DNA of 6,010 nt from Candidatus Iainarchaeum sp. GTDB lineage: Archaea > Iainarchaeota > Iainarchaeia > Iainarchaeales > DTGL01. The position numbers were made by a program, and so were the translations under genes. Shown here piece by piece: positions 1 to 5,978 of this stretch (the stretch's first letter is position 1; every line of letters begins with the position of its first letter). The notes under the pieces were generated by a model. That model saw nothing but the letters and a program-made list of their open reading frames with translations. It searched no databases and was not told where the DNA came from. The stretch is from positions 1 through 6,010 of the forward strand of contig JAVYME010000047.1 of the NCBI GenBank assembly GCA_038736825.1, read 5' to 3'.

Positions 1-649
1 CCCATACTCCGACTCCAAGGCCCCAGGCCTCTTCAGGACTGCAATTTTGTTTATATGTGCAGGGCTGGATTTGGTTGATTTCAGCCTCAGTATAAGTGTC
101 GCATGAAACGTTTGGAAGATAGCATTTTCCTCCGAGAAAGGATGCCGGGCTTGACCTCAAGCCGTGAATGTAAAACCGAACCATTTTGCCTGTCTTGTTG
201 TTTATGTAGTCTATTGTGTTGCCGATTTTTGTAAAGTCGTCGTCCATGCTTCCAGAAGTGTCCATGATGAAGTGGATTTCCACATTGGGCTGTGCCGTCA
301 CTTTAAGGTCGGGAATGTTCAAGTAATAGTTTTTTTCTCCATAAAAACCGTCAAACAATTCTTTCAATATGTTGTAGTCGTCAACTGTGTGGGGGCCGTA
401 CTGCCTTGAGCCGGCCCCGTAATAGGAATAGTTTGCGATTATTTCCCCGATTGTTTCCCCTGTTTGTGGTTCAACGATTTCGAGCAAGGCGTCAAAGCTT
501 TGCTCTAGGCGTTTTTCTTCAGCAAAGGTTTCCATGTCCCTGGTTGCCTGTGCAGCCTGGTTGAGCCTGTCCACTTCCACAAAAATCAGGGCTGCAAGGA
601 ACAAGCCCACAATGAATAATGCTGAAAGGATGTTTGATGTTTCAGCCAT
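1..649 (-). CDS. von Willebrand factor type A (vWA/MIDAS) domain protein with an N-terminal transmembrane helix; partial, C-terminus runs off the left edge
   Basis: This ORF is absent from the supplied track because it has no in-window stop. My manual minus-strand translation from the ATG at 647-649 stays open through nt 2 (216 codons): MAETSNILSALFIVGLFLAALIFVEVDRLNQAAQATRDMETFAEEKRLEQSFDALLEIVEPQTGETIGEIIANYSYYGAGSRQYGPHTVDDYNILKELFDGFYGEKNYYLNIPDLKVTAQPNVEIHFIMDTSGSMDDDFTKIGNTIDYINNKTGKMVRFYIHGLRSSPASFLGGKCYLPNVSCDTYTEAEINQIQPCTYKQNCSPEEAWGLGVGVW... A hydrophobic helix spans aa 7-24. A hydrophobic strand is followed by the DxSxS MIDAS motif (D130-T-S-G-S134, nt 248-262), an amphipathic helix, and a second hydrophobic strand (MVRFYIHGL). 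This is the canonical opening of a vWA fold. The ATG directly abuts the upstream TGA (TGAATG), and GTGA lies 7 nt upstream. Confidence 0.8.
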   Translation of the reverse strand, partial: MAETSNILSALFIVGLFLAALIFVEVDRLNQAAQATRDMETFAEEKRLEQSFDALLEIVEPQTGETIGEIIANYSYYGAGSRQYGPHTVDDYNILKELFDGFYGEKNYYLNIPDLKVTAQPNVEIHFIMDTSGSMDDDFTKIGNTIDYINNKTGKMVRFYIHGLRSSPASFLGGKCYLPNVSCDTYTEAEINQIQPCTYKQNCSPEEAWGLGVGVW

Positions 650-1417
650 TCATTTTTCACGCCCTGATTTGACAAAATAAAATATTATGAGAATTATGAA
701 AACTGCCGCGATGCCACCAATCAAGAGATAGTTGGTGTTGCCTTCAGGTTGCGGTGTTGGCGTGGGCTGTACTGTTTTTCCCGGGAAAACAGTTTCCTGT
801 CCTTGAATTGTTTGGGTTGGCTGTGGTGTCATGGTTTTCAGGCAGTCCGGGTCAACACCTCGCGCGCAGTCTGGGTCGCAATAAGTGTCTTCAAGCCAGA
901 CACATATTCCGTCCTCTTTGTCCATCGGGCAGTCCTTGCAGGAAAGAGCTGTTTCGTCTGGGTCACAGGCATTGTTTTGATTGCAAAGCCTTTCCTTTAC
1001 ATTGAATTCGAACGGCTTTTCAATTCCGTCGACTTTGACTGAAACCTTTTCTATTTCTTCTTTGTAGGGCATGAAGACATCCTTGGTTCCGGTGTCAGGC
1101 GGCTTTATTTCGTTATAGGGAAGGTTTTCGTCGAGAATGGAATAACTGTACAATATTTGTGGGGGAAAAAGGGCCAGCCTCACACTGTCAAGTTTTTGGC
1201 CTGAAGCGGAAAGAGTGGAGAGCGTGGCGTTTCCCGGCAATTCGTTCTGCGAGGCATAATCGTATAGGGTTTTGATGCCGGTTAGGTTCAAGCGATCAAA
1301 GTTCGTGTCGTAAGTGATTGTGAACCTTACCACCTTGATTTCGTCCTGCGCGAAAGCTACTGCAGTAAGGCAGAGCAGGAGTGCAATCAAAATCGCTTTA
1401 AATTTTTTTTTGTTCAA
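650..1417 (-). CDS. secreted, C-terminally membrane-anchored surface protein with an 8-Cys module and a Pro/Thr-rich stalk (hypothetical)
   Basis: The track ORF is 650-1480, but its first codon at 1478-1480 is GTG and it overlaps the upstream gene by 38 nt. An in-frame TTG at 1415-1417 lies 6 nt downstream of GGAGGG (1424-1429). It yields a textbook Sec signal, (M)NKKKFKAILIALLLCLTAVAFA|QDE. The mature protein starts with a beta-rich region. Next comes C-x5-C-x8-C-x2-C-x8-C-x7-C-x3-C-x7-C with repeated DPD(C/E) (nt 842-985). A P/T/Q-rich linker follows, TMTPQPTQTIQGQETVFPGKTVQPTPTPQPEG (nt 740-835). The protein ends with a TM helix, LLIGGIAAVFIILIIFYFV, and a basic tail, KSGREK. Confidence 0.75.
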   Translation of the reverse strand: MNKKKFKAILIALLLCLTAVAFAQDEIKVVRFTITYDTNFDRLNLTGIKTLYDYASQNELPGNATLSTLSASGQKLDSVRLALFPPQILYSYSILDENLPYNEIKPPDTGTKDVFMPYKEEIEKVSVKVDGIEKPFEFNVKERLCNQNNACDPDETALSCKDCPMDKEDGICVWLEDTYCDPDCARGVDPDCLKTMTPQPTQTIQGQETVFPGKTVQPTPTPQPEGNTNYLLIGGIAAVFIILIIFYFVKSGREK

Positions 1418-1423
1418 ATCCAA

Positions 1424-1429
1424 CCCTCC
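1424..1429 (-). promoter_or_regulatory. Shine-Dalgarno-like ribosome-binding site (GGAGGG) for the 650-1417 gene
   Basis: The minus-strand mRNA reads TAAAAAAAATTTGAATGGAGGGTTGGATTTGAAC. GGAGGG lies 6 nt upstream of the TTG at 1415-1417. It falls in the short gap after the TAA (1443-1445) of the upstream gene. Confidence 0.6.
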
Positions 1430-1442
1430 ATTCAAATTTTTT

Positions 1443-1874
1443 TTAGCCTTCAATTCTAATGGCTTTTGTAGCCTTGTCACACCTCACCTTTAGCGTGCTT
1501 GGAATCGTTAGGTTTGCTGGTGAAACCATTAAATTGCAGGTTTCACAGACATTGAATTTGTTGAAATCTGTTTCCAGGGAAAGCTTTGTTATTGGTTTCC
1601 CATAGTCTTTTTCTTCTGCATTCACTACGTGCACTATTCCGCAGTCCCTGTCCTCGCGCCCGAAATTGCAAGAGCGCCAGCAGTCTGAAACCATTCCCAG
1701 GAATGCATTGTAATTGATTTTTTGAAAGGTGTTTTGGTCCGCAGGCTTTCCACCCAGCAGTTGTGTGAGGTTTTCCTGCATTTTTTGAAAGTCAAAGCCG
1801 CCTATGAAGCCAATCACCAAAAAGCCAGCTATCACTGCAAAAAAGAAGAACACCAGCACTTCTATTACCTGCAT
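1443..1874 (-). CDS. small membrane or pilin-like protein: N-terminal hydrophobic helix plus a 6-Cys globular domain (hypothetical)
   Basis: The track ORF is 1443-1898, but its first codon is TTG and it overlaps the micro-ORF. The ATG at 1872-1874 is preceded by GGTGA (1879-1883) plus AAAA, which favours the shorter 143-aa form: MQVIEVLVFFFFAVIAGFLVIGFIGGFDFQKMQ... It has a single N-terminal hydrophobic helix. The soluble domain carries Cys residues in the pattern C-x3-C-x8-C ... C-x2-C ... C. The stop is TAA at 1443-1445. Confidence 0.7.
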   Translation of the reverse strand: MQVIEVLVFFFFAVIAGFLVIGFIGGFDFQKMQENLTQLLGGKPADQNTFQKINYNAFLGMVSDCWRSCNFGREDRDCGIVHVVNAEEKDYGKPITKLSLETDFNKFNVCETCNLMVSPANLTIPSTLKVRCDKATKAIRIEG

Positions 1875-1878
1875 TTTT

Positions 1879-1974
1879 TCACCATTTAAGCGCGCCAAGC
1901 GCGTAAATTATCAAGAGCGAGAGCGCAGCAAGCCCTATCAGTATTTCAATGATCTGCCAGGTCGTCCTGCTCAT
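1879..1974 (-). CDS. 31-aa hydrophobic micro-protein (candidate minimal pilin-like or Flp-like subunit, or a small membrane subunit)
   Basis: This ORF is not in the track. My manual translation gives ATG(1972-1974) AGC AGG ACG ACC TGG CAG ATC ATT GAA ... TGA(1879-1881), which encodes MSRTTWQIIEILIGLAALSLLIIYALGALKW. The ATG overlaps the FlaJ-like stop as ATGA. A strong SD, GGAGTGAT (1981-1988), lies 6 nt upstream. The next gene's RBS begins at this ORF's stop codon, so it fills the gap exactly. Confidence 0.6.
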   Translation of the reverse strand: MSRTTWQIIEILIGLAALSLLIIYALGALKW

Positions 1975-3866
1975 CCGCCCATCACTCCAGAGAAAACATA
2001 GTTTGTAAAAACAAATATTCCTAACAATAGCATTGAGCTGAAAACACCAAAGCCTGTCAAAAGAGTGCTGAAAATTGTTTTTCCAATTTTGTGCCTGTCT
2101 GAGCCGTATTTTATGTTTGCAAGGAAGGTTCCAAGGACCACAAGGGTCAAGATTATGTATACGCCAACTATTGCGAGCACAATGGTTGGCGGGATTATGG
2201 TTGAAGGATCAACAAGTTGCAGCGAGAAGTCTTTTAAGCCCACGCTTCTTGCAATGCCTTCTATTTCCTTGCTTATGAATTCAAGCGACATTACTATGGC
2301 TACTGCCATTATCACTGCAGTGGATGCAAGGATTGGTGCAAGCGCTTTGACTGAAACGCTTACAGTTGCAAATGTGTCGTTCAAGAGCGTTCTCAGGTAA
2401 TTATCAAGCCTGAAAATTGAAAGAGTTTGCGAGCGTATCATTTTCGCTGATTTTGCCGCACTCGCTATATCTATGTCTGCAAAGTGCACTATTCTGCGCA
2501 TTATTTGAACAAGCCTTTTTGAGGCAATTATTTCAGGCAGTTTTGTTTCAACAATTTCACCCAATGTTTTCTTGGTGTTATACAGTTCTTTGGTTATTTC
2601 ATTTAAGATTTTTACTACAGCGTGCTTTTTGAAGCCATGCCTAATATAATCGCTTTTCACATCCTGTATTATGCTTTCCATTGGCCTGTTCAATACAAGA
2701 TAACTGCTTATTATTTGGAGCAAGTGTGGAACATCTTCCTCTACCTCGTTCATTTCCTGCCAGGTTTTTTCATTCAAGGTAATGTACCTGAAAAGGTAAA
2801 TGGATATTCCTGCAACTATGCCAAAGAGCATGAGCCATACATTGAAGAGTGATTCAAAAGCATATTCTCTTGCCACCCCTGTTGGCGTGGACATATCAAC
2901 TTGCATGAAGTGAATTATTGCAGGTATTGCAAGTATTATCATAAACCCTGCACAAAGATAGGCAAAGCCTGGCGGCATTTTCTTGAATTTTGGTGACATT
3001 GAAAGGTCTATTGTGTTAACCTGAACTCTGTTCAATGCAAACTGCATTGCAAAAAGCATTAGCAGTGCCGGGCAGGAAACATTGTAAATGAAGATTAGCA
3101 TTGGCACATTTATCATATTGGGTAAAAAAATTGAAATTAGGGGAAGCATTATTAGCGACATCATTGGCAGCATTACCCCTATTGAAATCAGGCTTTTGGC
3201 TTGGTTTGAAAGGGTTTCAGTGGAACGCTTGCCGATATTGTAATAGCTTTGAATTATGGTTTTAATGCATTCCCTGAGCATTGGCTCCCTTTCCTTCAAT
3301 GGTGCCAAGGATGCTGTTTGAATCATGTTTAAGCCTTTCACGAATTCTGGGTTTATTTCCATCCATTTTGGAATGTATTCCTCAAAGGCTTCCCCCAAAG
3401 TGGAATATTTTTTGTTCTCCAGCTTTTGCTGGATGTCCCTGAATTGTTTTCCCATAGTGCCAGTAAGTCCTTTAGTGGTTTCAATGAAGGCAAATTCAAG
3501 GCTTGTGTTTAGGCTCAAATAATTGGCTATTTCAAGCAATGCTTGTAGCATTTCTTCTTTTTGCTTTAGAATGCTTTGAGTGTAATAAATGTTTGCACCG
3601 TAAAGGTAGGCGGCAAGCGGGATTAAGACAGAACCAAAAAAGAAAAGGTATGCCAAGAGCTCTAGCAAAGGATGCCCTGTCATGGCGTTCAATATATAGA
3701 AAAAAAAGCCTGTTAATCCCAGCCCTAAAAACCAGATTGTCAAACCTGAAATGAATTCTCCAGAAGTATAAGGAAATTCCACTTGCTGGAATTTTTTTTC
3801 CACCATAGAGGATTTCTTGAAGATTTTGAATTTTCTGCCTGTTTCGTAAACGAAATCAAAGTACAT
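1971..3866 (-). CDS. type IV filament platform protein, FlaJ/ArlJ / TadC / PilC (T2SS-F) family, polytopic membrane protein
   Basis: I count about 9 hydrophobic TM segments arranged as 2 TM, a roughly 130-aa cytoplasmic helical domain, 4 TM, a second roughly 135-aa helical domain, then 3 TM. The internal duplication typical of T2SS-F proteins is visible: IANYLSLNTSLEFAF (nt 3486-3530) aligns with ISSYLVLNRPMESII (nt 2670-2714). The gene sits immediately downstream of the secretion ATPase. The track start at 3920 is a TTG that overlaps the ATPase by 32 nt. The ATG at 3864-3866 (MYFDFVYETG...) follows the ATPase TAG (3889-3891) and is preceded by AGTGA plus AAAAA, so I prefer it (631 aa). The 630-650 aa fused two-domain size matches archaeal FlaJ-type proteins rather than the split bacterial TadB and TadC. 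Confidence 0.85.
   Translation of the reverse strand: MYFDFVYETGRKFKIFKKSSMVEKKFQQVEFPYTSGEFISGLTIWFLGLGLTGFFFYILNAMTGHPLLELLAYLFFFGSVLIPLAAYLYGANIYYTQSILKQKEEMLQALLEIANYLSLNTSLEFAFIETTKGLTGTMGKQFRDIQQKLENKKYSTLGEAFEEYIPKWMEINPEFVKGLNMIQTASLAPLKEREPMLRECIKTIIQSYYNIGKRSTETLSNQAKSLISIGVMLPMMSLIMLPLISIFLPNMINVPMLIFIYNVSCPALLMLFAMQFALNRVQVNTIDLSMSPKFKKMPPGFAYLCAGFMIILAIPAIIHFMQVDMSTPTGVAREYAFESLFNVWLMLFGIVAGISIYLFRYITLNEKTWQEMNEVEEDVPHLLQIISSYLVLNRPMESIIQDVKSDYIRHGFKKHAVVKILNEITKELYNTKKTLGEIVETKLPEIIASKRLVQIMRRIVHFADIDIASAAKSAKMIRSQTLSIFRLDNYLRTLLNDTFATVSVSVKALAPILASTAVIMAVAIVMSLEFISKEIEGIARSVGLKDFSLQLVDPSTIIPPTIVLAIVGVYIILTLVVLGTFLANIKYGSDRHKIGKTIFSTLLTGFGVFSSMLLLGIFVFTNYVFSGVMGG
1981..1988 (-). 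promoter_or_regulatory. Shine-Dalgarno-like site (GGAGTGAT) embedded in the last codons of the FlaJ-like gene, serving the 31-aa ORF
   Basis: The mRNA reads TCT GGA GTG ATG GGC GGA TGA, which is S G V M G G stop. GGAGTGAT is complementary to the conserved 16S 3' end AUCACCUCC. A 6-nt spacer (GGGCGG) separates it from the ATG at 1974. Confidence 0.6.
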
Positions 3867-3888
3867 TTTTTTCACTTTTCTTTTAAAA

Positions 3889-5553
3889 CTATTTTGAGGC
3901 AAGCTGGATTGTTCTGTCAAATGCTTCTTTGAATTCTTTTTCTGCTTTAGGGCTTTCCAATGGCTCTATTTGTTCAAACAAGTCTGCAAAAATCATGTTG
4001 GCTTTGAGAACGCTTGCTCCTTCGAGTCTTTCCGGAAAAACCGATGAAAGCCCAACAAATTTTTGTTTTGCCCAAGCCCTGAGCTCAATGTCCTTTATGG
4101 CAGCATCATATGACTTGTATGCAAGGGTTGTTTGCAGTATGTTTTTTATTATTTCAGATTTTCCATTCAACAGCTCTTTTGTTGGCTCAAGTGAATCGTT
4201 TTCTTTGTTGTAGAGCATCAAGTCTTGGAATTTTGGCTCTTTTTCCCAGTCCTTTAGCACTTCAGTTACCTGCGTTACTCTTCTCACATGATGCATTCCA
4301 GTGGCAGACTTAATTTGTTTTATGATTATTATGAGGTCTGTTACTTTGAACGAACCCCTTGGAACACCTAAGTCGTTGACAACGCGATCAAATACCCCGT
4401 ATGGAGTGTCAGCATGAATTGTTCCAGCAACAGTATTGGACATTGCACCAACACGCATTGCCTCATATAACACTCTTGCCTCTCCAGACCTGACTTCGCC
4501 CAAAATCAGGCAGGAATTTCCAAGCCTTAAACAGGTTCTCAAGCCTTTTTCTGGGGAAATCTCCAATCCTTCAGGGGAAAGCGCAGACTTTACTTTAAAG
4601 CAAAGAATGTCATAACCAAAATCTTTGTAAGCGTTTATTGGCAGTTCCTGAGTGTCTTCAATTGTTATAATCCTGTATTTGGGCAATATTTCCAGAATAG
4701 TTGCCCCCAAAAGGGATGTTTTACCAGAACCCCTTGGCCCAGTAAACATCATTGTTCTGCCGTGTGTCACCATGAAAGACATTAGCCCGGCAAAGAACGG
4801 AGAGAGCGTATTGTTTGAAATGAACAATGGCAGAGTCCAAGGCTTTTCCCTATGACGCCTGATAGAATAGCCTATGCCGTGTATTGAGAAAGGTTGCACT
4901 ACAGCTGCAACCCTTGCCCTTTGTTTTTCCACTATTAGTTCAGCATCAAGCTGGGGTTGTGCTTTGTTCAACGGCCTTCCTGACTCTATTTTCAGGAAAG
5001 TGGCAAGATAGTTGAGCAAGTCTATTGATGGATAAATGTTGGAGCGGCATTCATCGAATTCTTCGTGGACTATTCTGAAAGAGCTTTGGAATTCTGGGGG
5101 GTTAATGTTTATTTCTTGTATTTTGGGGTCGTTCATCAAGTAATCCAGGATGCCGTGCTGTTTTATCCATCTTACAAGCAATGGTGTTTTCATTTCGCTT
5201 GACTCGTATTCTTTGTGCAATTCCAGTAATTGTTTTAAGTTCAAGTCAAGGTTTGGAATTTCTATTGTGTAAGTTGGCTCCAGGTTTTGTTTTTCTTGCA
5301 CTATTTTCACACTGCTGTCTTTTATGGTGTAAGATTTCAATACTTTGCCTTTCACTGGTTTTATAAGGCAGTCAACAAAAAAAGGATATAACACATAAGA
5401 GTCATCCGTTAAATAGTGTTGTTTTGTGAAAAGCTTGTTTTTGTAAACTATCAAGTCTGTTTCTTTTGATGGTTTCACGCACTTGCTGCATACTGCAAAG
5501 GAGATGTCTCCCAACCCCATGCAATTGTTGCAATCCCTTGTAATATAGTTCAC
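3889..5553 (-). CDS. type II/IV secretion-superfamily ATPase, archaeal FlaI/ArlI / PilB-like (VirB11/GspE/TadA family), with an N-terminal Cys4 zinc ribbon
   Basis: All family motifs appear in order. Walker A is FTGPRGSGKTSLL (G272-T279, nt 4717-4740). The Asp box is RIITIEDTQEL (nt 4642-4671). Walker B is SCLILGEVRSGEA (about nt 4480-4512). The His box is VAGTIHADTP. The upstream N-domain signatures are DPKIQEININ and RVAAVVQPFSIHGIGYSIRRH. The Walker A lysine is at aa 278, as expected from my recollection of FlaI-type proteins. The N-terminus carries C8-x2-C11-x10-C22-x2-C25. The start codon is GTG at 5551-5553, forming a GTGA overlap with the upstream stop. AAGAGG (5564-5569) lies 10 nt upstream. 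The stop is TAG at 3889-3891. Confidence 0.93.
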   Translation of the reverse strand: MNYITRDCNNCMGLGDISFAVCSKCVKPSKETDLIVYKNKLFTKQHYLTDDSYVLYPFFVDCLIKPVKGKVLKSYTIKDSSVKIVQEKQNLEPTYTIEIPNLDLNLKQLLELHKEYESSEMKTPLLVRWIKQHGILDYLMNDPKIQEININPPEFQSSFRIVHEEFDECRSNIYPSIDLLNYLATFLKIESGRPLNKAQPQLDAELIVEKQRARVAAVVQPFSIHGIGYSIRRHREKPWTLPLFISNNTLSPFFAGLMSFMVTHGRTMMFTGPRGSGKTSLLGATILEILPKYRIITIEDTQELPINAYKDFGYDILCFKVKSALSPEGLEISPEKGLRTCLRLGNSCLILGEVRSGEARVLYEAMRVGAMSNTVAGTIHADTPYGVFDRVVNDLGVPRGSFKVTDLIIIIKQIKSATGMHHVRRVTQVTEVLKDWEKEPKFQDLMLYNKENDSLEPTKELLNGKSEIIKNILQTTLAYKSYDAAIKDIELRAWAKQKFVGLSSVFPERLEGASVLKANMIFADLFEQIEPLESPKAEKEFKEAFDRTIQLASK

Positions 5554-5978
5554 TTGTTGGTCGCCTCTTTTTCTGTTTTCATGGAGCGCTCGTATTCTTT
5601 CAAATACTGCCTTGTCCTTTGCAGTCTTGAAACAAGAAGAGCATCCGCAGTGCTACCCATTTTTTTCTCTAAGACTTGAACACGACGGTCTATTTCCTCT
5701 GTCTCGCTTGTGAGATAGTTGAACAGTTCTGGTGCTCTAATACTGGCAAGCTTTCCAAAGCTTTTTTCAACTTCAGCCATTTCTTTTTTTAGCCTTTGAT
5801 AGTTTTTCATTGTTATATCTGAAGCTGAAAGCCCTTGCGCTATAGAGAAAACCTGCTTTATTTCTTTGGTTGAATTTGATACAAGAGTGAGCTTTGACGA
5901 AACAAGAGCAATCCTTTTCTCAAACTCTGCAATTTTTTCCTCTGCTTCCAGAGAAGAATAGGATTCGCCTGCAATCAT
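5550..5978 (-). CDS. hypothetical coiled-coil protein, translationally coupled to the ATPase; may extend beyond the right edge
   Basis: The 142-aa ORF is rich in E, K, L, R and Q with heptad-like stretches (EAEEKIAEFEKRIALVSSKL; RLKKEMAEVEKSFGKLAS; EEIDRRVQVLEKKMG; RLQRTRQYLKEYERSMKTEKE). It has no TM segment. The TGA at 5550-5552 overlaps the ATPase GTG. The reading frame upstream of the ATG at 5976-5978 stays open to nt 6008 (...RSKLKKIIAA-M), and no SD precedes that ATG. The true N-terminus may therefore lie outside the window. Confidence 0.6.
   Translation of the reverse strand: MIAGESYSSLEAEEKIAEFEKRIALVSSKLTLVSNSTKEIKQVFSIAQGLSASDITMKNYQRLKKEMAEVEKSFGKLASIRAPELFNYLTSETEEIDRRVQVLEKKMGSTADALLVSRLQRTRQYLKEYERSMKTEKEATNK

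Follow-up and report, generated by a model that had tools for sequence, protein, structure and literature searches.

A predicted vWA domain in a pilin-like protein family encoded with type IV filament genes of DPANN archaea

Introduction

PilB of S. sanguinis is a bimodular pilin whose von Willebrand factor type A (vWA) module binds host proteins through a metal-ion-dependent adhesion site (MIDAS) (PMC8179133). By operon type, the closest described systems to the one treated here are TadG and the TadE-F-G tip complexes of Tad loci, in which the location of TadG, in the membrane or at the tip, is itself debated (PMC12075869, PMC4858521). In archaea, the vWA protein ArnB is functionally tied to type IV filaments as a cytoplasmic, phospho-regulated repressor (PMC4858521). 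Surveys of archaeal type IV filaments describe PilY-like adhesins and cytoplasmic vWA regulators such as ArnB, but no vWA-bearing pilin-like proteins (PMC4858521); vWA domains are not mentioned in 10.64898/2026.04.22.720090, and no adhesin is described for DPANN host contact in either source (PMC4858521; 10.64898/2026.04.22.720090). Here we analyse a stretch of 6,010 nucleotides (nt) from Candidatus Iainarchaeum sp. (contig JAVYME010000047.1 of assembly GCA_038736825.1; hereafter the window), and in particular a minus-strand open reading frame (ORF) at its left edge. A preliminary description, made from the letters of the window, had proposed that this frame encodes a membrane-anchored vWA/MIDAS protein at the distal end of a pilus operon and a candidate tip adhesin.

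Our analysis favours, on balance, the view that this frame encodes an accessory subunit, modular and pilin-like, of a type IV filament system in DPANN archaea; a tip-adhesin role for the protein is plausible. Its closest functional analogue is PilB (PDB 7ba2), as both comprise a pilin-type N-terminal helix and a small head carrying a vWA domain with a DxSxS motif and an Asp. The proposed logic is also the same, a filament-presented adhesion module, probably at the tip.

Results

A real gene cut by the contig end

On the minus strand, the frame from nt 649 to nt 2 contains no stop in 216 codons, nt 1 being the first base of codon 217; given the base composition of the window, so long an open run would arise by chance with a probability of ~9e-7. 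The frame is present in the public protein record as 'hypothetical protein QXK06_05875, partial [Candidatus Diapherotrites archaeon]'. The window is the entire contig, so that the leftward extension suggested in the preliminary description is impossible, and orthologous contigs were used in its place. Homologues (numbered with P, and their loci with L) align from residue 1 to residue 216 with no frameshift: P0039 (722 aa) is 49% identical over fragment residues 1-216 (tblastn E 6.9e-69) and P0002 (713 aa as called) is 44% identical (E 3.9e-47). The translation, the deposited record and the frameshift-free homologues uphold the proposal that the ORF is real, open for 216 codons and placed directly after the preceding stop: it is a genuine gene, cut by the contig end.

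The ATG of this gene (nt 649-647) abuts the TGA (nt 652-650) that stops an upstream 276-aa ORF. Because the two lie adjacent and in the same frame, one stop is all that interrupts a joint reading of both ORFs, and the frame might then be no separate gene, that is, a chance frame or a continuation of the 276-aa ORF by read-through of the in-frame TGA (650-652). We consider this extremely improbable. The chance value given above, together with homologues to E 3.9e-47, argues against a non-gene; about 30 homologues begin at the equivalent Met with the same N-terminal motif; and two further genes of the window also end in TGA. Fusion with the upstream ORF by TGA read-through is ruled out by the orthologous locus L004, in which the orthologues of the two ORFs are 2 nt apart (L004:9978-9985) and in different frames. 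The in-frame TGA and ATG of the window are therefore a coincidence, not recoding.

A DPANN family that escapes curated models

An exhaustive HMMER search of 1.84 billion representatives, with a cut-off of E <= 1e-3, returned 38 proteins. Removal of four repetitive, unrelated matches left a family of ~35 members from Diapherotrites, Woesearchaeota and Micrarchaeota, of which the nearest full-length relatives are 713-722 aa long and 44-49% identical to the fragment. Judged by these sources, the family appears to be restricted to DPANN archaea. Two scans of 185,579 species genomes, one with the fragment and one with the filament ATPase of the window, found no relatives; in a word-indexed protein search the fragment matched only itself, and the family profile added only P0039 and P0033. 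Searches of the fragment against Pfam, NCBIfam, PHROGs and PDB sequences gave nothing significant. Family members are annotated only as 'hypothetical' or 'PKD domain-containing' and lie below the threshold of every curated vWA or pilin hidden Markov model (HMM). Separately, one 2.85-kb family contig is binned as Aquificota, for which we suspect a binning error.

Conservation was counted in a 28-sequence family alignment, in which several columns have n=26 or 27. The family N-terminus reads M-x-x-x-(E/D/S)-(N/D)-(I/V/L) and continues with ~20 hydrophobic residues. There follow a module with the motifs (T)EP and FDxxYGxxNYY, a hydrophobic strand with DGSxS(M/L)xDD, and a strand with a Cys pair. 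Next come (Y)-E-D-W-(A/G)-x-G, (I/F)-P-x-S-D-E-L-S and strand-helix units ending in M..LA..T.G..(I/V).(D/N)L, and after these a module with the pattern F.IG..K...ERY..R..PLP......W.Y. Many members have a PKD domain (significant in Pfam), and about one third have a C-terminal HE(L/T/A)GH-x5-(D/E) domain, whose third ligand, D/E, lies six residues past the second His. The fragment spans the parts from the N-terminus to the (Y)-E-D-W-(A/G)-x-G motif; by comparison with its relatives, the complete protein would have roughly 700 aa, with the first 216 residues encoded in the window. Within the N-module, L56 (27/28), E60 (24/28) and G104 (27/28) stand out, as do the motifs (T/V)EP59-61 and FDxxYGxxNYY99-109.

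A predicted vWA fold

The fragment ends in the helix after strand 3, and the fold assignment is therefore drawn from the 49%-identical homologue P0039. AlphaFold2 (AF2) models of P0039 were made at full length with the family alignment (predicted local distance difference test, pLDDT, 81.9) and for residues 1-319 (pLDDT 82.1; predicted template modelling score, pTM, 0.70). The full-length model comprises a helix (2-56), an alpha/beta unit (67-113), a domain of alternating strands and helices (123-318), a beta module (324-358), a PKD domain (380-458) and an alpha/beta domain with an HELGH helix (489-722). The Rossmann-like order of elements that defines a vWA fold, a central sheet with helices on either side (beta1-alpha1-beta2-beta3-alpha-beta4-alpha-beta5-alpha-beta6-alpha), is found in residues 123-318, so that the vWA strands missing from the fragment are present in the model of this full-length relative. 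A DxSxS motif in strand-loop-helix context, as put forward in the preliminary description, is likewise borne out, with a strand at 123-130 and a helix at 133-153.

In a Foldseek comparison of the 1-319 model with the PDB, 13 of the 14 top matches are vWA proteins, among them BatB, C2a (several entries), ANTXR1, factor B, NorD, C4b2a, integrin beta3, PilB and CMG2. E values range from 1.7e-4 to 4.5e-3, probabilities from 0.98 to 1.00 and template modelling scores, normalised to single-domain targets, from 0.51 to 0.59. The full-length model additionally matched PKD domains (E 6e-7), the sortase-pilus adhesin PitA (E 4e-5) and the zinc peptidases BF3526 and archaemetzincin. When the family profile was compared with PDB sequences, every one of the top 26 matches was to an integrin I or beta-I domain, with beta1-DxSxS-alpha1 as the aligned part and marginal E values of 0.014-0.45. 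From these models and matches we assign a divergent vWA fold to the domain that starts at residue 122 of the fragment.

Several results pull the other way. The Foldseek E values are modest (~1e-4) and the root-mean-square deviations large, the latter because of insertions, and the evidence for the fold comes from P0039, not from the truncated fragment. Curated HMMs gave no support: PF00092 and PF13519, the models named for checking in the preliminary description, did not match the fragment in Pfam, and all other curated vWA HMMs stayed below threshold. The best, Integrin_beta (PF00362), scored 13.3 bits against a cut-off of 24.8 bits (E 0.071) and spans profile positions 6-47 only. For 17 family members, every match to a vWA HMM was sub-threshold (TssR_VWA in four, Integrin_beta in four, VWA_4 in two and VWA in one), the best being to VWA_4 with E 1.2e-3.

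The vWA domain is absent from the smallest members. Complete short forms of 160-166 aa, P0007 (L008:3271-3753) and P0012 (L009:173-673), consist of the N-module and the beta-hairpin module only, and P0007 (160 aa) aligns to residues 5-121 and 322-361 of P0039 (L001:56-2224). The vWA domain (~residues 122-321) therefore sits as an insert within a pilin-sized scaffold and is not added at the C terminus. P0003, which is 58% identical to the fragment over residues 1-116, also occurs without the vWA insertion.

A putative metal site and its possible likeness to integrin beta

Residues 123-138 of the fragment read VEIHFIMDTSGSMDDD, with D130, S132 and S134 of the DxSxS signature encoded at nt 262-248. 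In the family, D130 is kept in 25/27 members, S132 in 24/27 and S/T at position 134 in 25/27. The preliminary description had named two further MIDAS residues to be looked for, a Thr and an Asp. The strand-4 Asp lies beyond the contig end in the fragment; in P0039 it is D230 (in PASDELS, directly after strand 222-229), and it is kept in 26/26 homologues. The Thr is not conserved, and an acidic motif, E/D-D-W, occurs at its canonical site (E in 17/27, D in 22/27, W/Y in 27/27; SPEEAW in the fragment, D-A-P-E-A-Y in P0039).

With the acidic motif occupying that loop, the presence of Thr is the wrong test for this family. Integrin beta3 offers a precedent: its E220, in the string DAPEGG, replaces Thr as a MIDAS ligand, and by analogy the acidic residue of the E/D-D-W motif could serve as a metal ligand. 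The integrin beta I-like domain (PF00362) is also the best likeness at the sequence level, VEIHFIMDTSGSMDDD comparing with VDIYYLMDLSYSMKDD. The comparison used residues 109-359 of beta3, a sequence that was checked against the PDB and matched exactly; the likeness of motifs (CY-x5-C and P-E) was seen by eye. Both proteins have a Cys-x6-Cys loop after strand 2, CYDMKTTC in beta3 and CYLPNVSC in the fragment; the C176-C183 pair resembles the C177-C184 loop of beta3, and hhalign sets it on NPCYDMK. Both also have Pro-Glu before the next helix, and P0039 literally reads DAPE as in beta3. Because hhalign of the family against beta3 gave an E value of 0.0044 and a probability of only 7.8%, over 58 columns up to the first Cys, which counts against the likeness, we treat this resemblance as a lead, not a result. 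Unlike integrin beta, the DPANN protein lacks a hybrid/PSI context and an alpha-subunit partner, and the resemblance may be convergent or a remnant of very old vWA ancestry.

The four-Cys stretch pointed out in the preliminary description is present, at residues 176, 183, 197 and 203. Its first pair, 176/183, is kept across the family and probably forms a disulfide, as judged from this conservation; the second pair, 197/203, is not conserved.

Taken against a metal site are the Thr position, where the column after the conserved W is L in the fragment, P0002 and P0039, T or S in some members and N, R or A in others, and the loss of DxSxS in two members, P0030 and P0036. A vWA fold without a working MIDAS would be an interaction or assembly module, priming or capping filament assembly or engaged in PilY1-like mechanosensing, and would bind no ligand through metal. 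This possibility seems to us rather unlikely. It agrees with the unconserved Thr, with P0030 and P0036 retaining the fold-defining motifs beside a degenerate DxSxS, and with P0003 and the short forms, which have no vWA domain yet otherwise similar loci. Against it, D130, S132, S134 and the strand-4 Asp are each kept in >=24/27 members, which would be difficult to account for unless the members share a metal site, and the Thr loop nearly always holds an acidic residue, as in integrin beta I-like domains.

A long hydrophobic N-terminal helix without a leader

The preliminary description called the protein membrane-anchored. An N-terminal membrane helix is indeed present; the topology was assumed, without direct support from a class III leader or the positive-inside rule. 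Residues 7-25 are strongly hydrophobic (Kyte-Doolittle 2.6), and both AF2 models of P0039 have one unbroken helix at residues 2-57 (pLDDT 72-92). As in pilins, hydrophobic residues thus open a long (~50-residue) N-terminal helix, the helix being taken from the P0039 models, where its 56 residues are far more than a transmembrane anchor needs. In the Foldseek comparison, PilB was aligned over 297/319 columns of the 1-319 model, which further supports pilin-likeness. An extracellular location is predicted for the body of the protein from the PKD domains of the family, the conserved Cys pair, the leader-bearing homologues and, within the 216 residues of the fragment, four N-x-S/T sequons.

Processing signals speak against a pilin. 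The fragment starts MAETSNIL, so that only MAETSN precedes the hydrophobic stretch; no K/R lies ahead of the helix, and the count of K/R around it is 0 on the N-terminal flank versus 2 after the helix; in leaderless members such a count says nothing for N-in topology or tells slightly against it. A short basic leader ending in G/A, as in a class III signal peptide of the archaeal FlaFind type that PibD/FlaK/EppA peptidases process, was not found in the fragment, and in its clade the residues at the would-be -1 position are variable, with no G/A-1 cleavage context. Prepilin peptidase is known to need such a context, with a basic leader. Pilin HMMs (Pfam PF04021 and PF07790) did not match the fragment, and none scored above threshold on the family members scanned. 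The N-module is alpha/beta, unlike the all-beta head typical of archaeal pilins. Finally, the nearest bacterial counterpart, TadG, is proposed to be retained in the membrane (PMC4858521).

These points leave room for a reading in which the helix is a plain uncleaved signal anchor, and the protein is merely co-expressed with the filament genes and never leaves the cytoplasmic membrane; it might then tether the filament base or the S-layer, or work at the cell surface in adhesion or proteolysis, much as has been proposed for bacterial TadG. We hold it to be possible but clearly the less probable reading. It would account for a clade that has neither a basic leader nor a recognisable class III cleavage motif, for the want of a pilin HMM match and for an N-module that is not a canonical pilin head; moreover, the upstream 276-aa Cys-rich protein has a membrane anchor too, which shows that surface proteins outside the filament are encoded in the operon. 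It fits less well with the Woesearchaeota members, which have pilin-type KG|Q or KA|Q leaders at the aligned site, with minimal family members of pilin size (160 aa) or with a helix of 56 residues, well beyond the length of a membrane anchor. The class-III-like leaders KG|Q or KA|Q occur at the aligned position in P0018, P0021-23, P0032 and P0033 (about 6-7 members), and the basic leader KG|Q..E or KA|Q..E is a trait of the Woesearchaeota-type subgroup. A leaderless M-E-x-x-hydrophobic start in other small operon proteins also suggests a lineage-wide pilin format and not a special anchor.

Many small proteins of these operons start M-E/Q-x-x-(E)-hydrophobic without a basic leader, as gene starts are called (Table 1). 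Examples are MQVIEVLVFF in the window and MEMAIQVFIV in L004, the L005 orthologue of the latter being MNQKG|MEMAIQIFIV; orthologues elsewhere bear short KG| or KKA| leaders. Shared by several small proteins of the operon, the leaderless start looks like a habit of the lineage, and from their sequences these pilin-like proteins may be 'leaderless' pilins. An M-x-x-x-(E/D)-hydrophobic start resembles an already processed pilin, and on that reading no prepilin peptidase would be needed. Extending the idea, leaderless pilins might build a Diapherotrites-type DPANN filament without prepilin peptidase, with a composite tip subunit, combining integrin-beta-like MIDAS, PKD and zinc-protease parts, that binds and cuts the host S-layer for episymbiotic contact; this is speculation to which we give little credence.

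We rejected an alternative that places the protein inside the cell as a cytoplasmic regulator of the ArnB type: in Pfam, ArnB_C is matched at E 0.1 only and within the helical N-module, and the family has N-glycosylation sequons and PKD domains as well as the conserved Cys pair.

Conserved linkage to filament machinery

The family gene is encoded with a filament ATPase and a platform protein in the window, L004, L005, L006 and L007, and with a platform protein in L002. The linkage of the family to type IV filament machinery, a set of ATPase, platform and pilin-like genes, is constant across six long related loci, which sustains the pilus-operon context of the preliminary description. L004, a 62-kb JGI contig that encodes P0002, has the same gene order as the window and is orthologous to it; the 90%-identity cluster of P0002 includes a Candidatus Diapherotrites member. 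Identities between the two loci are 37% for the coiled-coil protein, 74.7% for the ATPase, 68.7% for the platform protein, 41% for the small pilin-like protein, 39% for the Cys-rich protein and 44% for the vWA protein. L005, L006 and L007 combine ATPase, platform protein, 4-8 small N-terminally hydrophobic genes and the family gene. The Woesearchaeota locus L002 (P0033) encodes a platform homologue (E 7e-33), nine pilin-type N-termini of the KA|, KG| or RG| kind and a homologue of the Cys-rich anchored protein. Pfam searches on the neighbour proteins of L001, L002 and L004 found no significant domain in most of them.

The further proposal that the vWA protein is encoded last did not survive this comparison. 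In the window the contig simply ends, and in L004, L001 and L006 one or two co-directional genes follow: two (406 and 1240 aa) lie 3' of the vWA gene in L004, a 404-aa gene overlaps the 3' end of the family gene in L001 (P0039), and a 466-aa and a 225-aa gene come after it in L006 (P0003). Only in the more distant loci L005 (P0006) and L007 (P0028), after ATPase, platform and six to eight small N-terminally hydrophobic proteins, is the family gene the last co-directional one. Most likely, then, the gene is not last in the operon of this organism. Five loci have a 404-466-aa protein after the family gene, directly or, in L008, one gene further on; those compared are 22-48% identical, and their N-termini are class-III-like (KKG|NVVAIV, QKG|DTVSVV, RRG|NIWAFL). 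From its recurrence, a gene of this 404-aa type is probably the next one past nt 1 of the window and encodes a partner subunit.

Two loci show features of their own. L002 has (ORFs 1976-3991 and 8925-10919(-)) a separate 671-aa pilin-like Cys-rich protein that ends in an HEMGH zincin-like domain, and a second, pilin-like vWA-type paralogue of 664 aa with DLVMILDTSISM ... FPISDSD. L006 (1649-3098, 5787-6553 and 6612-8303) comes from the Diapherotrites metagenome-assembled genome GCA_026396995.1. Here both the ATPase gene (397 + 93 aa) and that of the Cys-rich neighbour (103 + 93 aa) are split, and the family gene, P0003, has no vWA insertion; either this locus is decaying or there are assembly errors.

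The filament operon of the window

All genes of the window lie on the minus strand and together make up a type IV filament locus of archaeal/Tad type (Table 1). The ATPase matches FlaI (2.4e-29) and TadA (8e-29) in NCBIfam, both below the equivalog cut-offs. The CxxC-x10-CxxC motif in its first 30 codons, RDCNNCMGLGDISFAVCSKC, is conserved in L004, L005 and L006 and absent from the L007 ATPase; by its spacing it is likely a zinc ribbon. The platform protein is 68.7% identical to the product of the gene beside the ATPase in L004 and 21.8% identical (E 7e-33) to a 718-aa protein of L002. The apparent 32-nt overlap of its gene with the ATPase gene is due to an upstream TTG; the orthologue begins MYFDFVYETGRK, which corresponds to a start at nt 3866 and a 22-nt spacer, and we regard this start as probable. 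Similarly, the small pilin-like gene probably starts at nt 1874 (MQVIEVLVFF...), its L004 orthologue (41% identity) starting MQVIEVVVFF.

The 276-aa neighbour directly upstream of the vWA gene has a CDPD-rich Cys cluster and a Pro/Thr-rich linker and is conserved beside the family, with homologues at L004:9216-9980 (39%, E 3e-41) and L002:3982-4803 (E 5e-11). An exact-protein look-up of this ORF gave no match. Similar Cys-rich proteins with a C-terminal anchor, described as 'S-layer-like', occur in other archaeal type IV pilus loci (PMC4858521).

Table 1. Coordinates of the features discussed; positions are those of the window unless a locus is named.
Feature	Position	Strand	Basis
5' portion (216 codons) of the gene for a predicted large modular surface protein	2..649	-	translation; deposited partial protein; homologues P0002, P0039
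N-terminal hydrophobic helix, residues 7-25; membrane anchor or pilin-type alpha1-N	575..631	-	hydropathy; P0039 AF2 helix
N-module, residues 26-115; amphipathic remainder of long helix and small alpha/beta unit	305..574	-	alignments
First half of predicted vWA-fold domain, residues 122-216 (beta1, DxSxS, alpha1, beta2, Cys loop, beta3, start of next helix)	2..286	-	P0039 models; Foldseek
D130-T-S132-G-S134, DxSxS MIDAS at beta1/alpha1 junction	248..262	-	translation; family conservation; PDB profile alignment
C176-x6-C183, conserved Cys pair, beta2-beta3 loop	101..124	-	first Cys 23/28, second 24/28
E206-E207 then A-W, acidic E/D-D-W motif before helix, at canonical MIDAS Thr site	29..34	-	column counts
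Secreted Cys-rich protein, 276 aa, PT-rich linker, C-terminal transmembrane anchor	650..1480	-	ORF; transmembrane segments
Small pilin-like protein, 151 aa	1443..1898	-	single N-terminal transmembrane segment, score 3.03
Polytopic platform protein (FlaJ/TadC/PilC-like), 649 aa	1971..3920	-	eight hydrophobic segments; weak Spore_III_AB match E 5e-4
Type IV filament assembly ATPase (FlaI/TadA family), N-terminal CxxC-x10-CxxC	3889..5553	-	Pfam T2SSE E 1.5e-15
Soluble coiled-coil protein, 142 aa, 5' of ATPase gene	5550..5978	-	ORF; 37% identity to L004 194-aa protein, E 3e-27
Small proteins with leaderless starts	window 1443-1898(-), L004:8718-9146, 2669-3244(-), 2230-2637(-), 3256-3654(-), L005:7210-9191, L007:6623-9194		gene-start calls only
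404-466-aa downstream partner	L001:2218-3432, L004:12133-13353, L008:4698-5933, L009:739-1506, L006:8321-9721

Discussion

The likeness to PilB extends to its encoding in a pilus operon and to a Foldseek match of E 2e-3, at a sequence identity of ~10%. The two differ in several respects. PilB is bacterial, with a class III signal peptide (IPR012902 motif) and the canonical MIDAS Thr291, whereas the clade of the fragment is archaeal and leaderless and has an acidic motif in place of Thr; and PilB has its vWA domain added behind the pilin module, whereas in the DPANN family the N-module and the beta-hairpin module flank the vWA insert, with PKD and HExxH domains after. With TadG, the protein shares a large, N-terminally hydrophobic, pseudopilin-like vWA format and a late position in an operon with other minor pilins. 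As in Tad loci, the ATPase and platform protein of the window are of the TadA/TadC-FlaI/FlaJ type, the partner here being the 404-aa pilin-like protein. Unlike TadG, the family is archaeal (DPANN) and has fused PKD and zincin-like domains, and searches with TadE/Tad Pfam models (PF07811, PF13400) found none at E <= 1 for the fragment and none among the 17 members scanned.

Other vWA proteins are less close. The sortase-pilus tip adhesins RrgA and PitA (PDB 7w6b) display a vWA/MIDAS domain with inserted arms at the pilus tip, but they are assembled by covalent sortase polymerisation through LPXTG in Gram-positive bacteria, an unrelated system. ArnB is never encoded in type IV pilus loci and has no transmembrane helix, and the weak ArnB_C match falls in a region of the fragment outside the vWA domain.

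As a modular pilin-like subunit, the protein could work as follows. The hydrophobic N-terminal helix would first anchor it in the membrane, with the remainder outside. The ATPase/platform machine would then extract the helix into the filament, most likely as a tip or low-abundance subunit, and probably jointly with the conserved 404-aa pilin-like partner. There, the vWA domain would bind a ligand carboxylate via a metal coordinated by D130, S132 and S134 together with the strand-4 Asp; the acidic residue of the E-E-A-W motif would probably complete the site as an integrin-beta-like variant of MIDAS. In the full protein, the PKD spacer and the zincin-like domain may extend its reach and might also allow the bound surface, such as a host S-layer, to be proteolysed.

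The window encodes no more than the opening third of a single member, so that what it offers by itself is a signpost to the family. Proteins of this family escape Pfam and NCBIfam, and yet they carry a conserved, putative metal-site adhesion domain, often with a zincin-like domain, on a pilin-sized scaffold in the filament operons of at least three DPANN phyla. The 'modular pilin' principle, documented in bacteria (PMC8179133), would thereby extend to archaea, with grafting by insertion and not by C-terminal fusion. The family is a concrete candidate for the host-recognition element of DPANN archaea.

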